DNA of 24,000 nt, from contig AP024096.1 of the NCBI GenBank assembly GCA_015099395.1, forward strand, positions 5,721,485-5,745,484, given 5' to 3'. Of this stretch, positions 7,928 through 22,227 are shown one piece after another (position 1 is the first letter of the stretch; every line of letters starts with the position of its first letter). Source of the DNA: Ktedonobacteria bacterium brp13 (GTDB lineage Bacteria > Chloroflexota > Ktedonobacteria > Ktedonobacterales > Ktedonobacteraceae). Made by a program: the position numbers and the translations under genes. The notes under the pieces were generated by a model that ran no database searches, was not told where the DNA came from, and saw only the letters and a list, made by a program, of their open reading frames with translations.

Positions 7928-7958
7928 TGTATCGGTTGCAGGTCGTAAGACTGCCTCT

Positions 7959-8031
7959 GGGGCTGTAGCTCAGTGGATAGAGCGTCGGTTTCCTAAACCG
8001 TGCGTCGGCGGTTCGAGTCCGCCCAGTCCCA
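7959..8031 (+). tRNA. tRNA-Arg (anticodon CCT)
   Basis: Cloverleaf folded by hand. Acceptor GGGGCTG/CAGTCCC has one G-U pair. D arm is GCTC-AGTGGATA-GAGC. Anticodon arm is TCGGT-TTCCTAA-ACCGT, with T33 and A37 flanking CCT and a U-U at 27-43. The variable loop is 5 nt. T arm is GGCGG-TTCGAGT-CCGCC, with discriminator A. No CCA is encoded. Total length 73 nt. Confidence 0.9.
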
Positions 8032-8039
8032 TTTCTCCC
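7989..8039 (+). repeat. attL core: 3' 43 nt of tRNA-Arg plus 8 nt downstream
   Basis: TTTCCTAAACCGTGCGTCGGCGGTTCGAGTCCGCCCAGTCCCATTTCTCCC is identical to 22177-22227. Confidence 0.9.
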
Positions 8040-8301: not shown

Positions 8302-8475
8302 GGTGACTTTTTTTCTTTACCCCAACACACCAGCGAGTTTATTTTCTTTTTGGGTGAGTTTCCAGGGACTTTTTATTTTCTCAGGCGAGTTTTGGGAAAT
8401 TTTTTATTCGGCAGGGTGAGTTTGATTTATTTGGTGTGAGTTCCAGGGTGAGTTTTTTATTTGGCTGGTGAGTTT
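8302..8475 (+). repeat. Eight same-strand copies of GGTGAGTTT-like motif with helically phased spacing
   Basis: Copies start at 8302 (GGTGACTTT), 8332 (AGCGAGTTT), 8353, 8384 (GGCGAGTTT), 8415, 8435 (TGTGAGTTC), 8447 and 8467. Spacings are 30, 21, 31, 31, 20, 12 and 20 bp, with T-rich spacers. Confidence 0.7.
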
Positions 8476-8574
8476 TTTTTATTCCCCTGTTCTGTTGAGT
8501 AAGATTTAGGTGATAGCCAAGAGGTTATCAGCGAATTCGGGGTTGCTTCGGTGCGGCGATTCGTGTTCAAGGGA

Positions 8575-8617
8575 GGCGGGTAGTTGCCTCTCAAAAATAA
8601 CCCTCAATTCTGAAAAC
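8575..8617 (+). repeat. Dispersed ~41-43 bp element, copy a (CRISPR-repeat-related)
   Basis: GGCGGGTAGTTGCCTCTCAAAAATAACCCTCAATTCTGAAAAC matches copy c (10976-11016) at about 34/43 positions. It shares the core GTAGTNNCCTCTCAAAAT with copy b. Confidence 0.7.
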
Positions 8618-8671
8618 ATATCCCCACACAAAAAACACCCTTGAGCTTTATTTCTCTTGGGTGTCTTCTAC

Positions 8672-9074
8672 CAATCAGTATCCTCTGCGGATCGTGGCCT
8701 CTGCAACCAAATTTATTGACATGATCAACTCATCAGGTTCGACTTTCAGTATCCTCAAGCGGATCGTGGCCTCTGTAACAATGGGCGTATTTCTGAAGTG
8801 GGCTATTACCACAGAGTTTCAGTATCCTCAAACGGATCGTTTCCTCTGCAACTACCAAGAGATGATTCTTTCTCAGAAGGCGGCGATTGTGTTTCAGTAT
8901 CCTCAAGCGGATCGTAGCCTCTGCAACCAGCAGACTTCGAGGCTGTCATTAAAACCATCAATGATCTTTCAGTATCCTCCAACGGATCGAAGCCTCTGCA
9001 ACTCAGTCTTGATCGACCCGGTTACTAGTGAGCCAGCCTTCCAGTATCCTCAAGCGGATCGAGGCCTCTGTAAC
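8672..9074 (-). CRISPR. CRISPR array, repeat family A (6 degenerate 36-37 nt repeats, 5 internal spacers)
   Basis: Repeats lie at 8672-8707, 8743-8779, 8816-8852, 8891-8927, 8966-9002 and 9038-9074. The plus-strand consensus is GTTTCAGTATCCTCAAGCGGATCGTGGCCTCTGCAAC. Spacers are 35-38 nt and unique. The reverse complement GTTGCAGAGG...ATACTGAAAC has the usual GTTGCA...GAAAC form, so I infer minus-strand transcription. Every repeat differs from the consensus. Confidence 0.85.
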
Positions 9075-9110
9075 AAACTGAAAATCGAGTGCGGCGATAT
9101 GCTAGAGACA

Positions 9111-9360
9111 GTTTCCATTCTAAACGGGTTCAGCAGGCCATTTAGCCAGACAAAAACAACCCTGTAGGAAGAGGATTTGTAGTTTCAATCCCCAATGGGT
9201 TCAGCAGGCCATTTAGCCACTGGAAATATGGGGTTTTTACATTTGAGCCGTTTCAATCCCTCACGGGTTCTGCTGGCCGTTTAGACAGAGACAACGCCGC
9301 GACGGTATACCACAGGTTGGGAAGTTTCAATCCCTGACGGGTTCTGCAAGCCATTTAGAC
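9111..9360 (-). CRISPR. CRISPR array, repeat family B (4 degenerate 37 nt repeats, 3 internal spacers), directly abutting family A
   Basis: Repeats lie at 9111-9147, 9182-9218, 9250-9286 and 9324-9360. The plus-strand consensus is GTTTCAATCCCTNACGGGTTCTGCAGGCCATTTAGAC. Its reverse complement ends in AGGGATTGAAAC. Spacers are 31-37 nt. A 36-nt spacer-like gap (9075-9110) joins it to family A with no leader between them. The AT-rich candidate leader is 9361-9630. Confidence 0.85.
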
Positions 9361-9552
9361 TGCCACTCTTCTAGAATAACATAGGAAGCTGTTCAATACA
9401 AGTGTTTCCGAACGTCACAAAAAATCCATCATAGCAAGGGAATGTAAGGGGGTGTACGTTTATGAAAAGGGAAAAGAAGCGGTTGAAATTGATGATCGGG
9501 GTATCAGTGATTTTTAGGATTGCTATGGCGCAAAGTGTTTGAAGCAAGACAT

Positions 9553-9578
9553 ACGCGTAGTAGCCTCTCAAAATCATC
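9553..9578 (+). repeat. Dispersed element, copy b (core only), inside the putative CRISPR leader
   Basis: GCGTAGTAGCCTCTCAAAATCATC shares the core GTAGTNGCCTCTCAAAAT with copies a and c. Confidence 0.5.
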
Positions 9579-9638
9579 TTCTTAGCCATACTTTGAACTT
9601 TATGGATTCATGAGCGTCTATATCGATAGAGGTGAAAT

Positions 9639-10931
9639 ATGGCAAATCAAGAGCATCTAGACGTCCTTAAGCAAGGAGTAGCGGTTTGGAATAAGTGGCG
9701 CGAGGAACATCCAAACATACAACCTGATTTGAACCAAGCCGTGCTTAATGGTCTTGATTTGAGCAGATATAACTTCAGTAACGTTCAACTTGTAGGAGCA
9801 TTTCTTCATCAAGCAAAACTCATTGAAGCAAATCTCAGCTCCACCACAGGAACCAGCACAGTTTTTAGTGAAGCGGATCTGAGCATGGCAAATTTAAGCT
9901 GTTCCAATTTTAGCAGAGCAAATTTTAGTCGTGCCAATCTTTATCATGTCAATCTTCAATATACCTATCTATTTGGAACCATGCTCAAACAAGCAAACCT
10001 GAATGAAGCAAAATTGGATGAAGCCCTCCTCAGTGAGGCTGACTTGAGTTTTGCCAGTCTTGTCACGGCAACGTTAACGAAAGCAAATCTCACCAGAGCG
10101 AACCTGAGCTATACCTGGCTTACTAACGCCGATCTTAGCAATGCCATTTTGGCCTCAGCTTACTTTGCAAATGCGAACCTTCCAGGCGTGTATCTTTGTC
10201 ATGCAATTCTTGTAGGAGCCAATTTTACTGATGCTGATCTTTACGCGGCTCATCTTGATAATGCAAATCTTGAGAGAGCCATCTTTGTTGGAACAAGGTT
10301 AAAAAAGGCAGACTTAAGCAATTGTTTCATTCATGGTATTTCATCCTGGAATGTTCAGCTTGAGGAAGCCACTCAACGTAATCTTATTATTACTCGGCGC
10401 AATGAGCCCAAGATCACTGTCGATAGCCTTGAAGTTGCTCAGTTTATCTACCTTCTCCTCAATAACCAGAAAATTCGCGATGTTATCAACACGATCACCT
10501 CGAAAGTGGTCTTGATATTGGGTCGCTTTACAGATGAGAGAAAACTAGTTTTAGACGCTCTAAGGGATGAACTGCATAAACATAACTATTCTCCCGTTGT
10601 ATTTGATTTTGATCCATCAGCAAAACGAGATCTGACAGAAACTATCAGTACTCTTGCTCATATGTCCCGTTTCATTATTGCCGATCTTACTGATGCTAAA
10701 AGCCTTCCTCAAGAACTACAAGCTATCGTGCCGAATCTCCCTTCGGTTCCTGTCCAACCTATCTTGCACATAGATGGTCGAGAATACGCTATGTTTGAGC
10801 ACTTCAAGCGCTATTCCTGGGTACTGGAAACCTACCGCTACCAAGATATTCCTACAATGCTTGCATCCCTCAATGAAAACATCATTGAACCAGCAGAAAA
10901 GAAGGCCATAGAGTTAGAAGGTCGAAGATAG
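9639..10931 (+). CDS. Pentapeptide-repeat protein fused to a C-terminal alpha/beta domain of unknown function
   Basis: AGAGGTG RBS. Residues ~30-235 are continuous A(D/N)LXX pentapeptide repeats (ANLSRANLYHVNL, ADLSFASL, ANLTRANLSY, ADLSNAIL, and more). The C-terminal ~150 aa (VVLILGRFTDERKLVLDALRDELHKHNYSPVVFDF...SRFIIADLTDAKSLPQELQAI) has a strand-helix-strand pattern reminiscent of TIR-like or nucleoside-deoxyribosyltransferase-like folds. This fold assignment is unverified. Confidence 0.85.
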   Translation: MANQEHLDVLKQGVAVWNKWREEHPNIQPDLNQAVLNGLDLSRYNFSNVQLVGAFLHQAKLIEANLSSTTGTSTVFSEADLSMANLSCSNFSRANFSRANLYHVNLQYTYLFGTMLKQANLNEAKLDEALLSEADLSFASLVTATLTKANLTRANLSYTWLTNADLSNAILASAYFANANLPGVYLCHAILVGANFTDADLYAAHLDNANLERAIFVGTRLKKADLSNCFIHGISSWNVQLEEATQRNLIITRRNEPKITVDSLEVAQFIYLLLNNQKIRDVINTITSKVVLILGRFTDERKLVLDALRDELHKHNYSPVVFDFDPSAKRDLTETISTLAHMSRFIIADLTDAKSLPQELQAIVPNLPSVPVQPILHIDGREYAMFEHFKRYSWVLETYRYQDIPTMLASLNENIIEPAEKKAIELEGRR

Positions 10932-10975
10932 CTGTGTTCAGGATTACTACAGTGCTAGTCGACGTGGTGAGGATC

Positions 10976-11016
10976 GGCGGGTAGTGACCTCTCAAAATAA
11001 TCCTATTTTCTGAAAC
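10976..11016 (+). repeat. Dispersed ~41-43 bp element, copy c
   Basis: GGCGGGTAGTGACCTCTCAAAATAATCCTATTTTCTGAAAC lies 45 nt after the pentapeptide gene stop. Confidence 0.7.
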
Positions 11017-11254
11017 TTGCTCGATAGAATAGGTACTCCTCTATTCAGTTAGGATTTCTAAATTCTTCTGCTGTTAATTTTGCTTGAGATTATATACCTT
11101 CTAACATCTCTAAATCGAGAGAAATAGATCGAAAAGCATTATTCGTTCGGTACTGTTTAGGTATATTTTAAGTAAATCATGTTGCCCCTCTTCCGAATAC
11201 CCTCCTCTTTGTCTCTTCTCATCGCGGACCTAGTGACTTCTCTACTCAATATGC

Positions 11255-17390: not shown

Positions 17391-20300
17391 ATGACTACCC
17401 AGCCTATTGAAATTTTCTACTCCTACGCCCACGAAGATGAAGACCTCCAAAAGCAGCTTGACGAGCATCTTAGCTCACTCAAACAACAAAAACTGATTAG
17501 TGGCTGGTATGATCGAGATATTAGTGCTGGCGCATTATGGTCAGAGGAGATACAGCGTCATTTGCATTCTGCCCGTATTATATTGTTTCTTGTCAGTAGT
17601 TCATTTCTTGCATCGAAATATTGCTATGAAGTAGAGGTACAAGAAGCGTTAAAACGGCATGAGGCCGGTGAAGCAGTTGTTATTCCTGTTATTCTGCGCT
17701 CTTGCTACTGGCAAGTTGCCCCCTTTGGACAGTTTCAGGCATTGCCGAAGAATGCAAAACCTGTTACATTGTGGTCAAACCGTGACGCTGCTTTTACGGA
17801 TGTGGTGAAGGGCATTGTGAAGGTAATTAACGAAATCGATAGTCAGAAGAAGACGCTACCTACTCAGCAGAACGGTAAGCGAAAGAGGAGGATGGGCGAA
17901 GTGTTGGAAGAAGAGTATGAATCTACCGCAGCTATGCCAGAGATACCACACACACCAACAGCATTTAATAATACTCTCAAGAAGGCTATCGAGCGTTATT
18001 ATAAGGAACTCAAAGAGTATGAAGGCAAAGCAGACTACGAACTAGCCTTACGATCAGCGTTTCAGAACTTGCTGGCAGAAGCGTGTCGCCTTGTGAAGTG
18101 GACGTTGATTCCTGAGCAAACGTTAGAAGGTGGTATCCGCCCAGATGGTGTTGTGCGTGATGCTTTTGAATTGCGTCGTGGTTACTGGGAGGCGAAGGGG
18201 CCAAAGAGCGATCTGGATAAAGAGATTGCGAAGAAGATTGCCGATAACTACCCACTCATGAATACCCTCTTCGAAAATACCCGTGTAGCAGTACTGTATC
18301 AGAGTAAAAAGCGCTTGCCCTATGAATACGATTTAACGAAGCCTAACGATGTCAGCGACTTGATCAAGCAGTTTGTAACCTATACTGAACCGGATATTGC
18401 GAACTTTGAAACGGCTGTGGGAGAGTTCAAGCAACGCATTCCTGAATTGGCGAAGGCGCTACTAGACAGCATTGAGAAGGAACAAAAGCAGAATAAGAAA
18501 TTCATAACGGCCTTCGATACCTTTACTGAACTTTGCCGAACCTCTCTTGATCCAAAAATTAGCGACAATACTATCAAGGAGATGCTTGTTCAACACTTGC
18601 TGACTGAGCGCCTTTTCCGCACGATCTTTGGTAACGCCGATTTCGTCAACCGCAATGTGATCGCTGCTGAGATTGAGCGTGTTATTCAGGCTCTTACCAG
18701 TCGTTCTTTTGATCGCCAGGAATTTCTTAAATCACTGGATCGTTTTTACGTAGCGATAGAAAGTGCTGCGAAAGGTATTGAAAGTTGGTCAGAACGTCAA
18801 CACTTCTTGAACACCGTCTACGAACGATTCTTCCAGGGTTTCTCTGTCAAGCAAGCTGATACATTAGGTATTGTCTACACACCGCAAGAGATTGTAGATT
18901 TTATGTGTGCTAGCGTTGAGGAGGTCTTACAACGTGAGTTTGGTACTTCAATCGCTGAACCTGGTGTGCAAATCCTCGATCCTGCTACGGGAACAGGAAG
19001 CTTTATTGTGAATCTCCTACATCGTATTCCTCGTCATCAGTTAAAACATAAGTATAGGCATGATCTTTTTTGTAATGAGGTTACCTTATTGCCCTACTAC
19101 ATCGCATCACTAAATATTGAGCATGAATATTTTGAACGTGTCGGTGAATATGAACCGTTCGAGGGTATTTGTTTTGCTGATACTTTGGAGTTGGCTGAAG
19201 GTCAACAATTACCACTTTTTGTAGAGGAGAATACTGAGCGGGTACAACGAGAAAAAGATGCTCAAATTATGGTGGTGATCGGTAATCCTCCTTATAATGT
19301 TGGTCAAAAGAGTGAAAATGATAATAATAAAAACCGCAAATATCCTTTAACGGATGCTCGTGTAAGTGAGACTTATGCTAAAGATTCCAAGGCAAGTAAT
19401 AAGATTGCTCTGTCTGATGTCTACGTTAAGTTCTTTCGTTGGGCTTCTGATCGTTTAGGAAACCGAGATGGCGTTGTTTGCATGATTACAAATAATTCCT
19501 TTATTGATCAGGTGGCGTTTGATGGCATGCGTATGCACTTACAGAAAGATTTCACAACGATTTATCATATTGATTTGCATGGTAATGTGCGGAAGAATCC
19601 AAAAATATCTGGTACTACGCATAATGTCTTCGGTATTCAAGTTGGTGTGGGTGTTACTATTGCTGTTCGTAATGCCAAGCAGCTAAAAAAGGTTATCTAT
19701 TACAATCGTGTTCCTGATTTTTGGCGTAAAGCGGAGAAATTAGCGTTTTTAAAAGAAAAAGGCAATATTTCAGCTATAGAATGGCTAGAATTACAGCCAA
19801 ACGAACGGCATATCTGGATGACAGAAGGATTGAGACCGGAGTTTAGTACCTATTTCCCTATGGGTAGCAAAGAAGCTAGACTCGTTAAGAGTGGCACTAT
19901 AGCAGAGTCTAATGTTAAAACTATTTTCAAAACCTATTCGCTAGGACCACGTACAAATCGCGATGATTGGGTACGTGACTTTAATAGAGAAGCCCTTACA
20001 CGCAAGGTATTTAGGCTTGTAGATACGTATAATGGTGAAGTTGATCGTTGGCATAGAAGAGGGAGTAATAATACAGGAGTTGACGATTTTGTCATTTATG
20101 ATGATAAAAGGATAAAATGGAGCAGAGATTTAAAATTAGATCTTCAACGTGGTAGCTATTCACAGTATAATGAGGAGAAAATTCGTCGCTCACTATATAG
20201 ACCATTTTGTAAACAGTATCTCTTCTTTGACCGGGTTTTAAATGAAGAAGTTTATCAATTCCCTCAAATCTTGCCTACTTCTACTACTGAGCAAGAGAAT

Positions 20301-21086
20301 ATTTTTATTGGTTTAACAGATTTAGGTTCAGAGAAACCTTTCATGGTTATGGCCTCTAATCTTATCACTGATGTACATTTGGTGGGTGCTGGCTGCGGAA
20401 CACAGTGCTTCCCCTTTTATACTTATTCGGAAGATGGCAGTAATCGTCGTGAAAACATTACCAATTGGGCTCTCAATCAATTTCAGGCTAGGTACGGCAA
20501 TCAAGTTACTAAATGGGATATCTTTCATTACGTCTATAGCCTCTTGCACCACTCTCAATACCGTGAACGTTATGTTGAGAACCTCAAGCGAGATTTGCCT
20601 CATATTCCACTTGTCCATACACCAGAAACATTTCAAAGCGTTGTGAATATTGGCAAACAGCTTATGGATATCCATCTGAACTATGAGACAGCGAAAGAGT
20701 ATCGTTTGACATGGTTAGAAAATGAGAATGTGCCTTTTAGCTGGCGTGTGGAGAAGATGCGTTTGTCTACGGATAAGCGTGTAGTGGTTGTCAACGAGAG
20801 CCTGAGACTTGGACCATTGCCGCAGGAATGTTTTGATTATCGATTGGGAAATCGTTCTGCACTTGAGTGGGTTATTGATCAGTACCAGGTCTCAAAAGAT
20901 TCTCGTAACGGTATTGAGAGCGACCCTAATCGGCTGGATAACGAAGAGTATATTGTACGTCTAGTCTGCAAAGTAGTTCAGGTCAGTGTTGAGACGGTGC
21001 AGTTAGTGAATGAGTTGGCTCAGAAAGTGACTGTAGAGGATTGGACAGAGGAGAGTGTGAATGTAAGCGAGGCTACAGAGGTATAA
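17391..21086 (+). CDS. TIR domain + PD-ExK-like motif + gamma-class N6-adenine DNA methyltransferase + Type ISP-like C-terminal (target-recognition) domain fusion
   Basis: AAGGAG RBS. Residues 6-150 are a bacterial TIR (IEIFYSYAHEDEDL ... ILFLVSSSFLASKYCYEVE, with candidate catalytic Glu E80 at nt 17628-17630). A nuclease-like motif is D252...E267-A-K269 (IRPDGVVRDAFELRRGYWEAK, nt 18144-18197). AdoMet motif I is DPATGTGSF (nt 18978-19004). Motif IV is NPPY (nt 19284-19295). The C-terminal FPFYTY...ENITNWAL...IFHYVYSLLHHSQYRERYVENLKRDLPHIPL...LMDIHLNYE resembles, from memory, the C-terminal domain of Type ISP enzymes (LlaGI/LlaBIII). No Walker A or helicase motifs were seen. Confidence 0.8.
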   Translation: MTTQPIEIFYSYAHEDEDLQKQLDEHLSSLKQQKLISGWYDRDISAGALWSEEIQRHLHSARIILFLVSSSFLASKYCYEVEVQEALKRHEAGEAVVIPVILRSCYWQVAPFGQFQALPKNAKPVTLWSNRDAAFTDVVKGIVKVINEIDSQKKTLPTQQNGKRKRRMGEVLEEEYESTAAMPEIPHTPTAFNNTLKKAIERYYKELKEYEGKADYELALRSAFQNLLAEACRLVKWTLIPEQTLEGGIRPDGVVRDAFELRRGYWEAKGPKSDLDKEIAKKIADNYPLMNTLFENTRVAVLYQSKKRLPYEYDLTKPNDVSDLIKQFVTYTEPDIANFETAVGEFKQRIPELAKALLDSIEKEQKQNKKFITAFDTFTELCRTSLDPKISDNTIKEMLVQHLLTERLFRTIFGNADFVNRNVIAAEIERVIQALTSRSFDRQEFLKSLDRFYVAIESAAKGIESWSERQHFLNTVYERFFQGFSVKQADTLGIVYTPQEIVDFMCASVEEVLQREFGTSIAEPGVQILDPATGTGSFIVNLLHRIPRHQLKHKYRHDLFCNEVTLLPYYIASLNIEHEYFERVGEYEPFEGICFADTLELAEGQQLPLFVEENTERVQREKDAQIMVVIGNPPYNVGQKSENDNNKNRKYPLTDARVSETYAKDSKASNKIALSDVYVKFFRWASDRLGNRDGVVCMITNNSFIDQVAFDGMRMHLQKDFTTIYHIDLHGNVRKNPKISGTTHNVFGIQVGVGVTIAVRNAKQLKKVIYYNRVPDFWRKAEKLAFLKEKGNISAIEWLELQPNERHIWMTEGLRPEFSTYFPMGSKEARLVKSGTIAESNVKTIFKTYSLGPRTNRDDWVRDFNREALTRKVFRLVDTYNGEVDRWHRRGSNNTGVDDFVIYDDKRIKWSRDLKLDLQRGSYSQYNEEKIRRSLYRPFCKQYLFFDRVLNEEVYQFPQILPTSTTEQENIFIGLTDLGSEKPFMVMASNLITDVHLVGAGCGTQCFPFYTYSEDGSNRRENITNWALNQFQARYGNQVTKWDIFHYVYSLLHHSQYRERYVENLKRDLPHIPLVHTPETFQSVVNIGKQLMDIHLNYETAKEYRLTWLENENVPFSWRVEKMRLSTDKRVVVVNESLRLGPLPQECFDYRLGNRSALEWVIDQYQVSKDSRNGIESDPNRLDNEEYIVRLVCKVVQVSVETVQLVNELAQKVTVEDWTEESVNVSEATEV

Positions 21087-21145: not shown

Positions 21146-22081
21146 TTATCTACTAGTCCTTCGTCTGGTTGTATTCGGCGTCTTTCTCGCTTCTTCGGCC
21201 TGGAACGTCTTCAAGTAGACCTCTGTGACCTTTACTGAACTGTGGCCCATGAGAATACTTAGTCGATAGATATCACCTCCATTACGAAGGTAGTTCACTG
21301 CAAAGGTATGTCGGCACGTGTGAGCAGAGCAGCGTACTCCCTCGATTTTGCCCCATCGCGCCAATCGATCAAATAACATATCTATGCCCTTTATCGTGAG
21401 CGGCTGATAGTATCTTGAGGCGAATGCTGGTTCATCGTTACCTGCCTCTTTACGATATGCCTCTAAATAGCGTCTCAATCGCCTTCTGACCTCGTTTGGA
21501 AGCCCTACCTCTCTCCACTTCCTACCCTTGCCGTAGACTTTGATATGTGCGTCTTCTGGATGAAGGTAGATATTACCGACGGTAAGTGTGCAAAGCTCAT
21601 TAGAACGGATGCCAGTGTTTAGAAACAGGTCTAGTATCAATTCATCTCTATCGCGTAGATGTTGGTTGTATTCTTGCTGAGAGGCTTTGTAGAGCTCTTT
21701 GATATGGTCCTGTGTGAAGGTCTCAATGATCACTACGTCTACCTTCGGCGGCTTGATGCGTTTGACGGCTTTCTCGCTGACATGGCCCTCGTATTCGTCG
21801 TCTTGAGCACACCAGTTAGCAAAGCCTTTCACGACCTGGACATAGCCGTGTACTGTATAGCTAGAGAGTGTGGTATTCTTACGTGGTGAGCGCGTGCGAG
21901 AGAGATGATCTTGGAAGCGGGTGACTGTGCGGTTATTCATATCTGCAAGGTTGATGTCGTTCGCTGCACACCATTCGGAGAAAACGGCTAACTTCTGCTC
22001 GTACCACTGGTATGTCTTTGGCTGTAGTGTCTGGCATTCAGTCAGATAGTCGGCGATGGCGTTGGTTATGGATGTTCCCAC
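21146..22081 (-). CDS. Tyrosine recombinase / phage-type integrase
   Basis: GTG start with an AAAGGACC RBS. There is an N-terminal SAM-like core-binding region. Catalytic residues are recognisable: NTGIRSNEL (Arg), GKGRKWREV (Lys), AHTCRHTFA (His-x-x-Arg), LMGHSS (His) and TEVYL (Tyr). It lies 95 nt from attR. Confidence 0.92.
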   Translation of the reverse strand: MGTSITNAIADYLTECQTLQPKTYQWYEQKLAVFSEWCAANDINLADMNNRTVTRFQDHLSRTRSPRKNTTLSSYTVHGYVQVVKGFANWCAQDDEYEGHVSEKAVKRIKPPKVDVVIIETFTQDHIKELYKASQQEYNQHLRDRDELILDLFLNTGIRSNELCTLTVGNIYLHPEDAHIKVYGKGRKWREVGLPNEVRRRLRRYLEAYRKEAGNDEPAFASRYYQPLTIKGIDMLFDRLARWGKIEGVRCSAHTCRHTFAVNYLRNGGDIYRLSILMGHSSVKVTEVYLKTFQAEEARKTPNTTRRRTSR

Positions 22082-22176: not shown

Positions 22177-22227
22177 TTTCCTAAACCGTGCGTCGGCGGT
22201 TCGAGTCCGCCCAGTCCCATTTCTCCC
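22177..22227 (+). repeat. attR core: displaced 3' tRNA-Arg fragment
   Basis: It is a 51/51 match to 7989-8039. It has no 5' tRNA half, since the upstream sequence gtaata differs from the tRNA. Confidence 0.9.

Follow-up and report, generated by a model that had tools for sequence, protein, structure and literature searches.

A possible fossil composite CRISPR array carried by a tRNA-Arg island in Ktedonobacteria bacterium brp13

The repeat locus at positions 8672-9360 of the window, by which we mean the whole 24-kb stretch of DNA analysed from the approximately 8.9-Mb genome of Ktedonobacteria bacterium brp13, a soil member of the Chloroflexota, is best explained as a fossil composite CRISPR array that forms part of the cargo of a tRNA-Arg island. 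Transcription and cleavage may still take place, but the array would not mediate interference in this host, and we give this reading as a whole a probability of roughly 0.55. In this composite, a short type III-D-style array, which retains a leader and promoter of its own, would run from the leader through B4, B3, and B2 to the degenerate B1 as its terminal repeat; one spacer-length downstream of this B block, a type I-style array without a leader would follow, from A6 through A2 to the likewise degenerate terminal repeat A1.

Architecture, orientation, and spacers of the array

Repeat finding and direct reading resolved the locus into ten repeats, six of family A and four of family B, which form one uninterrupted repeat-spacer series. 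The preliminary description of this DNA had proposed such a continuous series with a spacer-sized junction of 36 nt between the two families, and both features were recovered. The repeats are 36-37 nt in length and alternate with nine unique spacers of 31-38 nt, resulting in start-to-start distances of 68-75 nt. All of the repeats are assigned to the minus strand. The trailer-end repeat of family A, A1 (8672-8707), is 36 nt long, lacks one base of the loop, and has a mutated 3' handle. Repeats A2-A6 (8743-8779, 8816-8852, 8891-8927, 8966-9002, and 9038-9074), with spacers 2-5 between them, retain the core, stem, and handle. The junction spacer between the B block and the A block (9075-9110, minus strand, 36 nt) is without similarity to A-type leaders. 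The trailer-end repeat of family B, B1 (9111-9147), has a broken stem, in which the CCC opposite GGG is lost, and a mutated handle, while B2-B4 (9182-9218, 9250-9286, and 9324-9360), which enclose spacers 8 and 9, retain an intact CCC/GGG stem and ATTGAAAC handle.

Pairwise identities were 81-95% among A2-A6 and 76-89% among the B copies, and no identical pair was found, in agreement with the earlier statement that no two repeats are identical. The accompanying statement that every repeat is degenerate applies to A1 and B1, the only copies with a broken stem or handle; the other eight of the ten repeats keep both elements and differ mostly at positions that are naturally variable. Terminal repeats of CRISPR arrays are degenerate as a rule. 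In the transcribed orientation, A2-A6 vary at positions 4, 11-13, 21, 23, 34, and 37, and the clusters of substitutions previously noticed in family A were found again at plus-strand positions of about 15-17 and 25-27.

Direct repeats of 23-47 nt, regular spacing, and unique spacers of similar length were used as the definition of a CRISPR array. The locus possesses this repeat and spacer geometry together with repeat families that are linked to cas genes and a conserved leader with a promoter; the near-identity of repeats that is expected within one array is absent, with identities of 76-95%. The repeat series is not a product of chance, as long homogeneous arrays of either family are found in related genomes.

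Regarding orientation, transcription of the minus strand, as previously proposed, is supported by several features of the sequence. Read on this strand, the repeats end in an 8-nt 3' tag, which is ACTGAAAC or ACTGAAAG in family A and ATTGAAAC in family B. The broken copy is the trailer-end copy in each block, the arrays of relatives have their variant repeats at the 3' end in the same orientation, and the array of the Herpetosiphon aurantiacus plasmid pHAU01 has a degenerate terminal repeat at the end distant from the cas genes. The strongest indication is a MAFFT alignment that revealed homology between the minus-strand segment from 9361 to about 9430 and the leaders of ten natural family-B arrays. 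A single leader at 9361-9630 had been proposed; it does adjoin B4, but its conserved part measures about 50-70 nt and not 270 nt.

The leader of the window contains a promoter-like pair of hexamers, a -35 element TTGTAT at 9401-9396 and a -10 element TATTCT at 9378-9373, which are 17 nt apart. The consensus of natural B leaders is TTGCAT-17 nt-TATACT, and, thus, each hexamer of the window carries one change. A generic sigma-70 scan did not call this promoter because eight of the 12 positions matched against a threshold of nine. An A-type leader was sought upstream of A6, and nothing similar was found; therefore, read-through from the B block is the only visible source of family-A transcripts. 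This agrees with the earlier proposal that family A is read through from family B, of which the absence of an A-type leader is observed, while the read-through step itself is inferred.

A comparison of the spacers with phage, plasmid, and host sequences, which had been suggested previously, returned no second match in the genome of the strain itself and no significant match among INPHARED phages or PLSDB plasmids. The 24-mer cores of spacers 5 and 9 had no exact match in IMG/VR, and no high-identity match of spacer length was present among the matches listed for 111 genomes of the same bacterial family.

Repeat families in relatives and Cas content of the host

The distribution of the two repeat families was surveyed by pattern and BLAST searches in these 111 genomes, designated here by G numbers. 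The family-wide tallies include three unpublished genomes (G019, G057, and G065), on which no specific claim depends. Family A is present in more than 200 copies in long homogeneous arrays in G102 and occurs in many further genomes, including four of the same genus. In G051, which belongs to this genus, family-A arrays of 53 and 48 repeats flank a type I locus with genes for Cas3, a Cas8-sized protein, a DevR-type Cas7, a Cas5-sized protein, Cas6, Cas1, and Cas4. A plasmid search detected a family-A-related repeat in the long array of pHAU01, beside an annotated type I operon. The family-A arrays of G102 and G103 are situated at contig ends beside housekeeping or DISARM genes and are uninformative on linked cas genes. 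Family B fills arrays in at least ten genomes. On contig 65 of G110, a 57-repeat family-B array directly follows Cas1 and a type III-D-like system, namely a Cas6/Cas10 (Cmr2-like)/Csx10 RAMP operon, and more than ten further arrays of this family were recorded elsewhere. The match of family B to the Rfam model CRISPR-DR60 (RF01373) was weak (28.7 bits, below the gathering score of 45). The classification of the repeats, which had been recommended, thus links family A to type I systems (G051 and pHAU01) and family B to type III-D-like systems (G110), and the earlier view that two unrelated repeat families share one cas-less locus holds. The congeners G051 and G046 possess complete type I and type III systems with these same repeat families, and family-A arrays are mixed with RAMP genes in complex loci in G083 and G026.

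Heterogeneous arrays were also found in relatives in which cas genes are missing or broken (G050 and G035), which fits drift once adaptation stops. In G050, the chromosome of which is complete at 4.86 Mb, a family-A array of 43 repeats with nine repeat variants is located at 2055-2058.5 kb, and no match to Cas1, RAMP, or Cas6 was obtained on this chromosome; the genus thus has a second array without cas genes. On contig 8 of G035, at about 248.9-249.9 kb, Cas1 frames with in-frame stop codons adjoin a heterogeneous family-B array, and this region looks like a decaying adaptation module. A separate observation concerns a 10-kb contig of G102 (contig 188, 1651-9462), on which a 453-aa Cas1, a MerR-type HTH protein, and a family-B DNA polymerase are encoded together; this cluster is a casposon-like element in a Chloroflexota genome.

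The substitutions among the repeats of the window were compared with natural variation, for which the dominant repeat of each of 13 natural family-A arrays was used; 13 of the 37 positions vary among them. In A2-A6, 12 of the 14 substitutions and seven of the eight variable columns fall on naturally variable positions (binomial P = 1.5e-4 and Fisher P = 0.0011, values that are indicative only because the copies are related). The corresponding test in family B was not significant (five of eight variable columns naturally variable versus 16 of 37 sites), and the family-B copies of the window carry bases at position 16 that are absent from natural arrays. The pattern in family A points to constraint after adaptation had stopped rather than neutral drift, and it would fit purifying selection after the cessation of adaptation, a mosaic origin from several arrays, or mutational hot spots.

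The host genome is represented by a single contig of 8.88 Mb with an estimated completeness of 92%. Profile searches with Pfam and NCBIfam detected no Cas1, Cas2, DevR-type Cas7, Cas5, or RAMP protein and no Cas3 above the cut-off. When the full protein sets of the pHAU01 and G051 type I loci and the G110 type III locus were compared with the genome by tblastn, the only matches were two cas6 genes. Cas6-A (genome positions 548951-549937; 328 aa) aligns along its entire length with Haur_5080 of the pHAU01 operon at 42% identity (E = 6e-98), and its identity to the Cas6 proteins of the same genus that adjoin family-A arrays is 52-74%. For Cas6-B (3635188-3636150; 320 aa), identity was 58-63% with the Cas6 at the head of the type III operon in G110 and 76% with a Cas6 of G051 that is encoded beside RAMP genes. 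Both genes are uninterrupted and keep the glycine-rich C-terminal loop, and their neighbours are ordinary metabolic genes. Only cas6 itself is common to these surroundings and the cas loci of relatives, with no sign of a scar from deletion in place. On sequence grounds, the host thus appears to keep exactly two processing enzymes, one cognate to each repeat family, and no other cas gene. This absence applies to an assembly that is 92% complete; since congeners have two to seven replicons or contigs, a replicon with cas genes could be lacking from it. Outside this host, G010 (91% complete) and several fragmentary genomes of the family likewise possess genes of the Cas6-B type but gave no RAMP match.

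No other array was identified in the host genome by a k-mer chain scan, in which the remaining matches were coding or plain tandem repeats. Four more family-A-like relic repeats, in one or two copies each, occur at three sites (2214724-2214760, 6113601-6113715, and 39680-39716). The first of these sites lies beside an ISAs1-like transposase gene and the last near other IS genes, and the sites at 6113601-6113715 and 39680-39716 have a leader-like motif containing TATAAT in common. The preliminary description had reported no cas gene in the 24-kb window, which is correct, and had called for a genome-wide search for cas loci and arrays. Extended to the whole host, its statement stands for effector and adaptation genes, neither of which was found in the assembly, but has to be amended for the two solitary cas6 genes and the four relic repeats. 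Since solitary cas6 genes do not make a cluster, the locus is an orphan array in the sense of Bernheim et al. (2019).

The island that carries the array

The array is located between the attachment sites of an island of 14.2 kb. The integration target is a tRNA-Arg(CCT) gene on the plus strand (7958-8032), which was identified by ARAGORN and scored 64.3 bits with the Rfam tRNA model. The left attachment site, attL (7989-8039), overlaps the 3' end of this gene and is a 51-bp direct repeat of attR (22177-22227), with 51 of 51 positions being identical. An intact gene for a tyrosine integrase (21146-22081, minus strand) occupies the far end of the island, 95 nt from attR. The cargo includes a P4-type primase, a DUF559 nuclease, an HTH protein, a TIR-Type ISP restriction enzyme, and a pentapeptide-repeat protein.

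A related island is present at the same tRNA in G050 (OY969433.1), a metagenome-assembled genome of an uncultured Chloroflexia of the same genus, and shares with the island of the window the segment just inside attL and the backbone from the primase to the restriction gene. Shared sequence is thus found on both sides of the array, and the array therefore lies between conserved parts of the island. Its earlier placement inside an att-bounded mobile element is confirmed by the perfect 51-bp att sites, the integrase, and the backbone shared with G050. At this position, an array is missing from the related islands that occupy the same tRNA in G050, G045, and G054, and the array of the window is therefore considered to be lineage-specific cargo. 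A search of all species genomes based on the primase revealed no close island beyond that of G050.

Several further features of the island were recorded. The gene at 17391-21086 encodes a protein of 1231 aa in which an N-terminal TIR domain is fused to a Type ISP restriction-modification enzyme with coupler, methylase, and specificity domains, and this protein is defence-type cargo of the island. A conserved non-coding element of about 120-140 nt, which we call the m element, occurs at 8491-8620, about 9484-9600, and about 10908-11020 of the window, and these copies bracket the pentapeptide gene as well as the array. One more copy is located 35 kb away beside an IS fragment (genome positions 5780111-5780232), and in G045 and G054 the related islands, which are array-less, have homologues immediately inside their boundary. 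On the plus strand, the core of the element ends in a CTGAAAC-like tag, opposite to the orientation of the array. It was rejected as a structured RNA or leader, with no Rfam match, no convincing covariation, and occurrence in array-less islands, and it may mark the borders of cassettes. Short GGTGAGTT-type repeats are present just inside attL (8412-8474), a position at which the islands of G050 and G045 have analogous but different short repeats; these may be putative arm-type binding sites for the integrase or an excisionase. The handles and the pentapeptide gene also prompted a comparison with cyanobacterial CRISPR-associated transposons, which was abandoned because no Tn7-like genes occur in the window, the element is an integrase island, and the host clade belongs to Chloroflexota.

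Possible roles and comparison with known systems

As for the origin of the composite, fusion most likely occurred by deletion or recombination inside a complex locus with type I and type III components, and such loci are common in this bacterial family, as exemplified by G083 and G026. The fused array would then have been captured by, or recombined into, the island, which would have brought it into the present genome. Any transcription would start at the weakened promoter of the B leader and proceed on the minus strand through both blocks, and the two solitary Cas6 enzymes, as judged from their homology, could still cut this transcript into crRNAs. The assembly contains no adaptation or effector genes, and therefore neither spacer acquisition nor interference is expected in this host. 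The heterogeneity of the repeats would reflect a long time since the last addition of a spacer. A precedent for an array without cas genes is the heterogeneous orphan family-A array in the cas-less G050, with nine variants among 43 repeats. Several points count against a fossil. The island, with its perfect att sites and intact integrase, looks active and has nevertheless kept the array. The cognate cas6 genes are likewise intact, and a purely dead system does not obviously need them. In addition, the family-A substitutions look constrained, B2-B4 keep the stem and handle, and a replicon with cas genes could be absent from the assembly. Among the three readings that had been offered previously, a decaying relic provides the best fit in this host, whereas an array that borrows the effectors of its host cannot work here, the host assembly having none.

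The main alternative, which we consider rather unlikely, is that the island carries a working guide array that no longer adapts, the transcripts of which are processed by host Cas6 enzymes and loaded by the type I and type III-D effectors of the hosts that the island enters, for use against competing mobile elements, and that this array is idle here only through the loss of effectors. Such a role would be consistent with the restriction of family-A substitutions to tolerant positions, the intact stem and handle in eight of ten repeats, the bona fide leader with its promoter motif, the apparent mobility of the island, and the complete matching type I and type III systems of the congeners G051 and G046; moreover, the use of arrays in trans and arrays borne by viruses and plasmids are established (PMC7145637, PMC11656645, PMC9071438). 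It is at odds with the lack of effectors in this genome, the one mutation in each promoter hexamer of the leader, and the three related islands without an array. In the known mini-arrays of mobile genetic elements, the repeats are identical to those of the host, and one or two spacers target sister elements (PMC11656645), whereas all repeats differ here and the nine spacers are unmatched in the collections compared. The location between attL and attR, with island backbone on both sides, is that of an array on a mobile element; the host has no active system with which the repeats could be identical or nearly so, its other A-like repeats being relics of one or two copies.

We regard it as improbable that selection keeps the array as a Cas6-processed RNA locus, either as an effector-less module with the two solitary cas6 genes or as a dual set of decoys or guides against the predominant type I and type III-D systems of the family, with a function in trans in new hosts or a non-immune role in the present one. 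An RNA decoy alone, resembling an RNA anti-CRISPR, appears less probable again; its expressed repeats would soak up Cas6 or nucleate dead-end complexes and thereby shield the island in CRISPR-armed hosts. Both of the repeat families prevalent in the host family are indeed placed on one mobile element behind one promoter, the determinants of protein binding are conserved while the remaining repeat positions drift, and repeat-derived inhibitors on phages and plasmids have been described (reviewed in PMC11656645). However, unique spacers of normal length give the locus the look of an ordinary array and not of isolated repeat units, the terminal repeat of each block is decayed as in natural arrays, no genes for anti-CRISPR proteins were recognised nearby, and the array is not conserved in related islands. 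Finally, although an open frame spans the A block (168 codons, 8661-9167) and other iteron-like repeats are present in the island, the possibility that the locus is a protein-coding or iteron-type tandem repeat and not a CRISPR array is refuted, with hardly any probability left to it, by the homology of its repeats, which belong over their full length to two families that make up arrays beside cas genes in other genomes, and is further opposed by the attached CRISPR leader, the unique spacers, and the periods of the A block (72, 73, 75, 75, and 72 nt), which preserve no reading frame by design.

Orphan arrays are usually dismissed as debris. The locus described here offers a clean natural test case, in which two CRISPR types are joined in one unit and only the matching Cas6 enzymes are left. 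If its RNAs are made and cut, it would follow that Cas6 and an array can persist when the remainder of the system is lost or can serve a mobile island, with a bearing on the function of arrays in trans and on the decay of CRISPR systems. If they are not made, the fossil composite array that we favour becomes a dated remnant of a complex type I and type III locus, which shows how composite arrays arise.

Orphan arrays, defined as arrays in genomes without a cognate cas cluster, account for about 12% of arrays and are small, with an average of eight repeats, and drift has been proposed for them (Bernheim et al., 2019; PMC7145637). The present locus resembles them in that its genome has no cas cluster, its ten repeats are close to that average, and its repeats are typable by cas-linked arrays; it differs in that two families are fused behind one leader in one transcription unit, in its location on an integrative island, and in the two cognate solitary cas6 genes that the genome keeps. 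Cas-less arrays on viruses and plasmids are also known (reviewed in PMC11656645 and PMC9071438). With mini-arrays of the SPV1/SPV2 type, the locus has in common the absence of cas genes, the location on a mobile element, and repeats that belong to systems of the host clade. In contrast to these mini-arrays, it has nine spacers instead of one or two, its repeats are not identical to those of any host array, no target was found for its spacers, and its current host has no effector.

Regarding cas-linked counterparts, the type I array of pHAU01 (CP000876.1, about 101.7-109.4 kb) lies beside an operon for Cst1, DevR, Cas5, Cas3, Haur_5080, Cas1, Cas2, and Cas4. Its repeat is also 37 nt long and shares with family A the 5' two-thirds of the plus-strand repeat, and its Cas6-like Haur_5080 is the protein to which Cas6-A is 42% identical; however, the last third of the repeat differs, and the pHAU01 array is long, homogeneous, and adjacent to cas genes. 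Natural family-B arrays, such as that on contig 65 of G110, agree with the B block in repeat length, the CCC/GGG stem, the ATTGAAAC handle, and the leader sequence, whereas the B block has four copies that are all unlike, novel bases at position 16, and mutated promoter hexamers. Taken together, what is unusual in the present locus is the head-to-tail fusion of two repeat families behind one leader combined with the retention of both cognate solitary cas6 genes.
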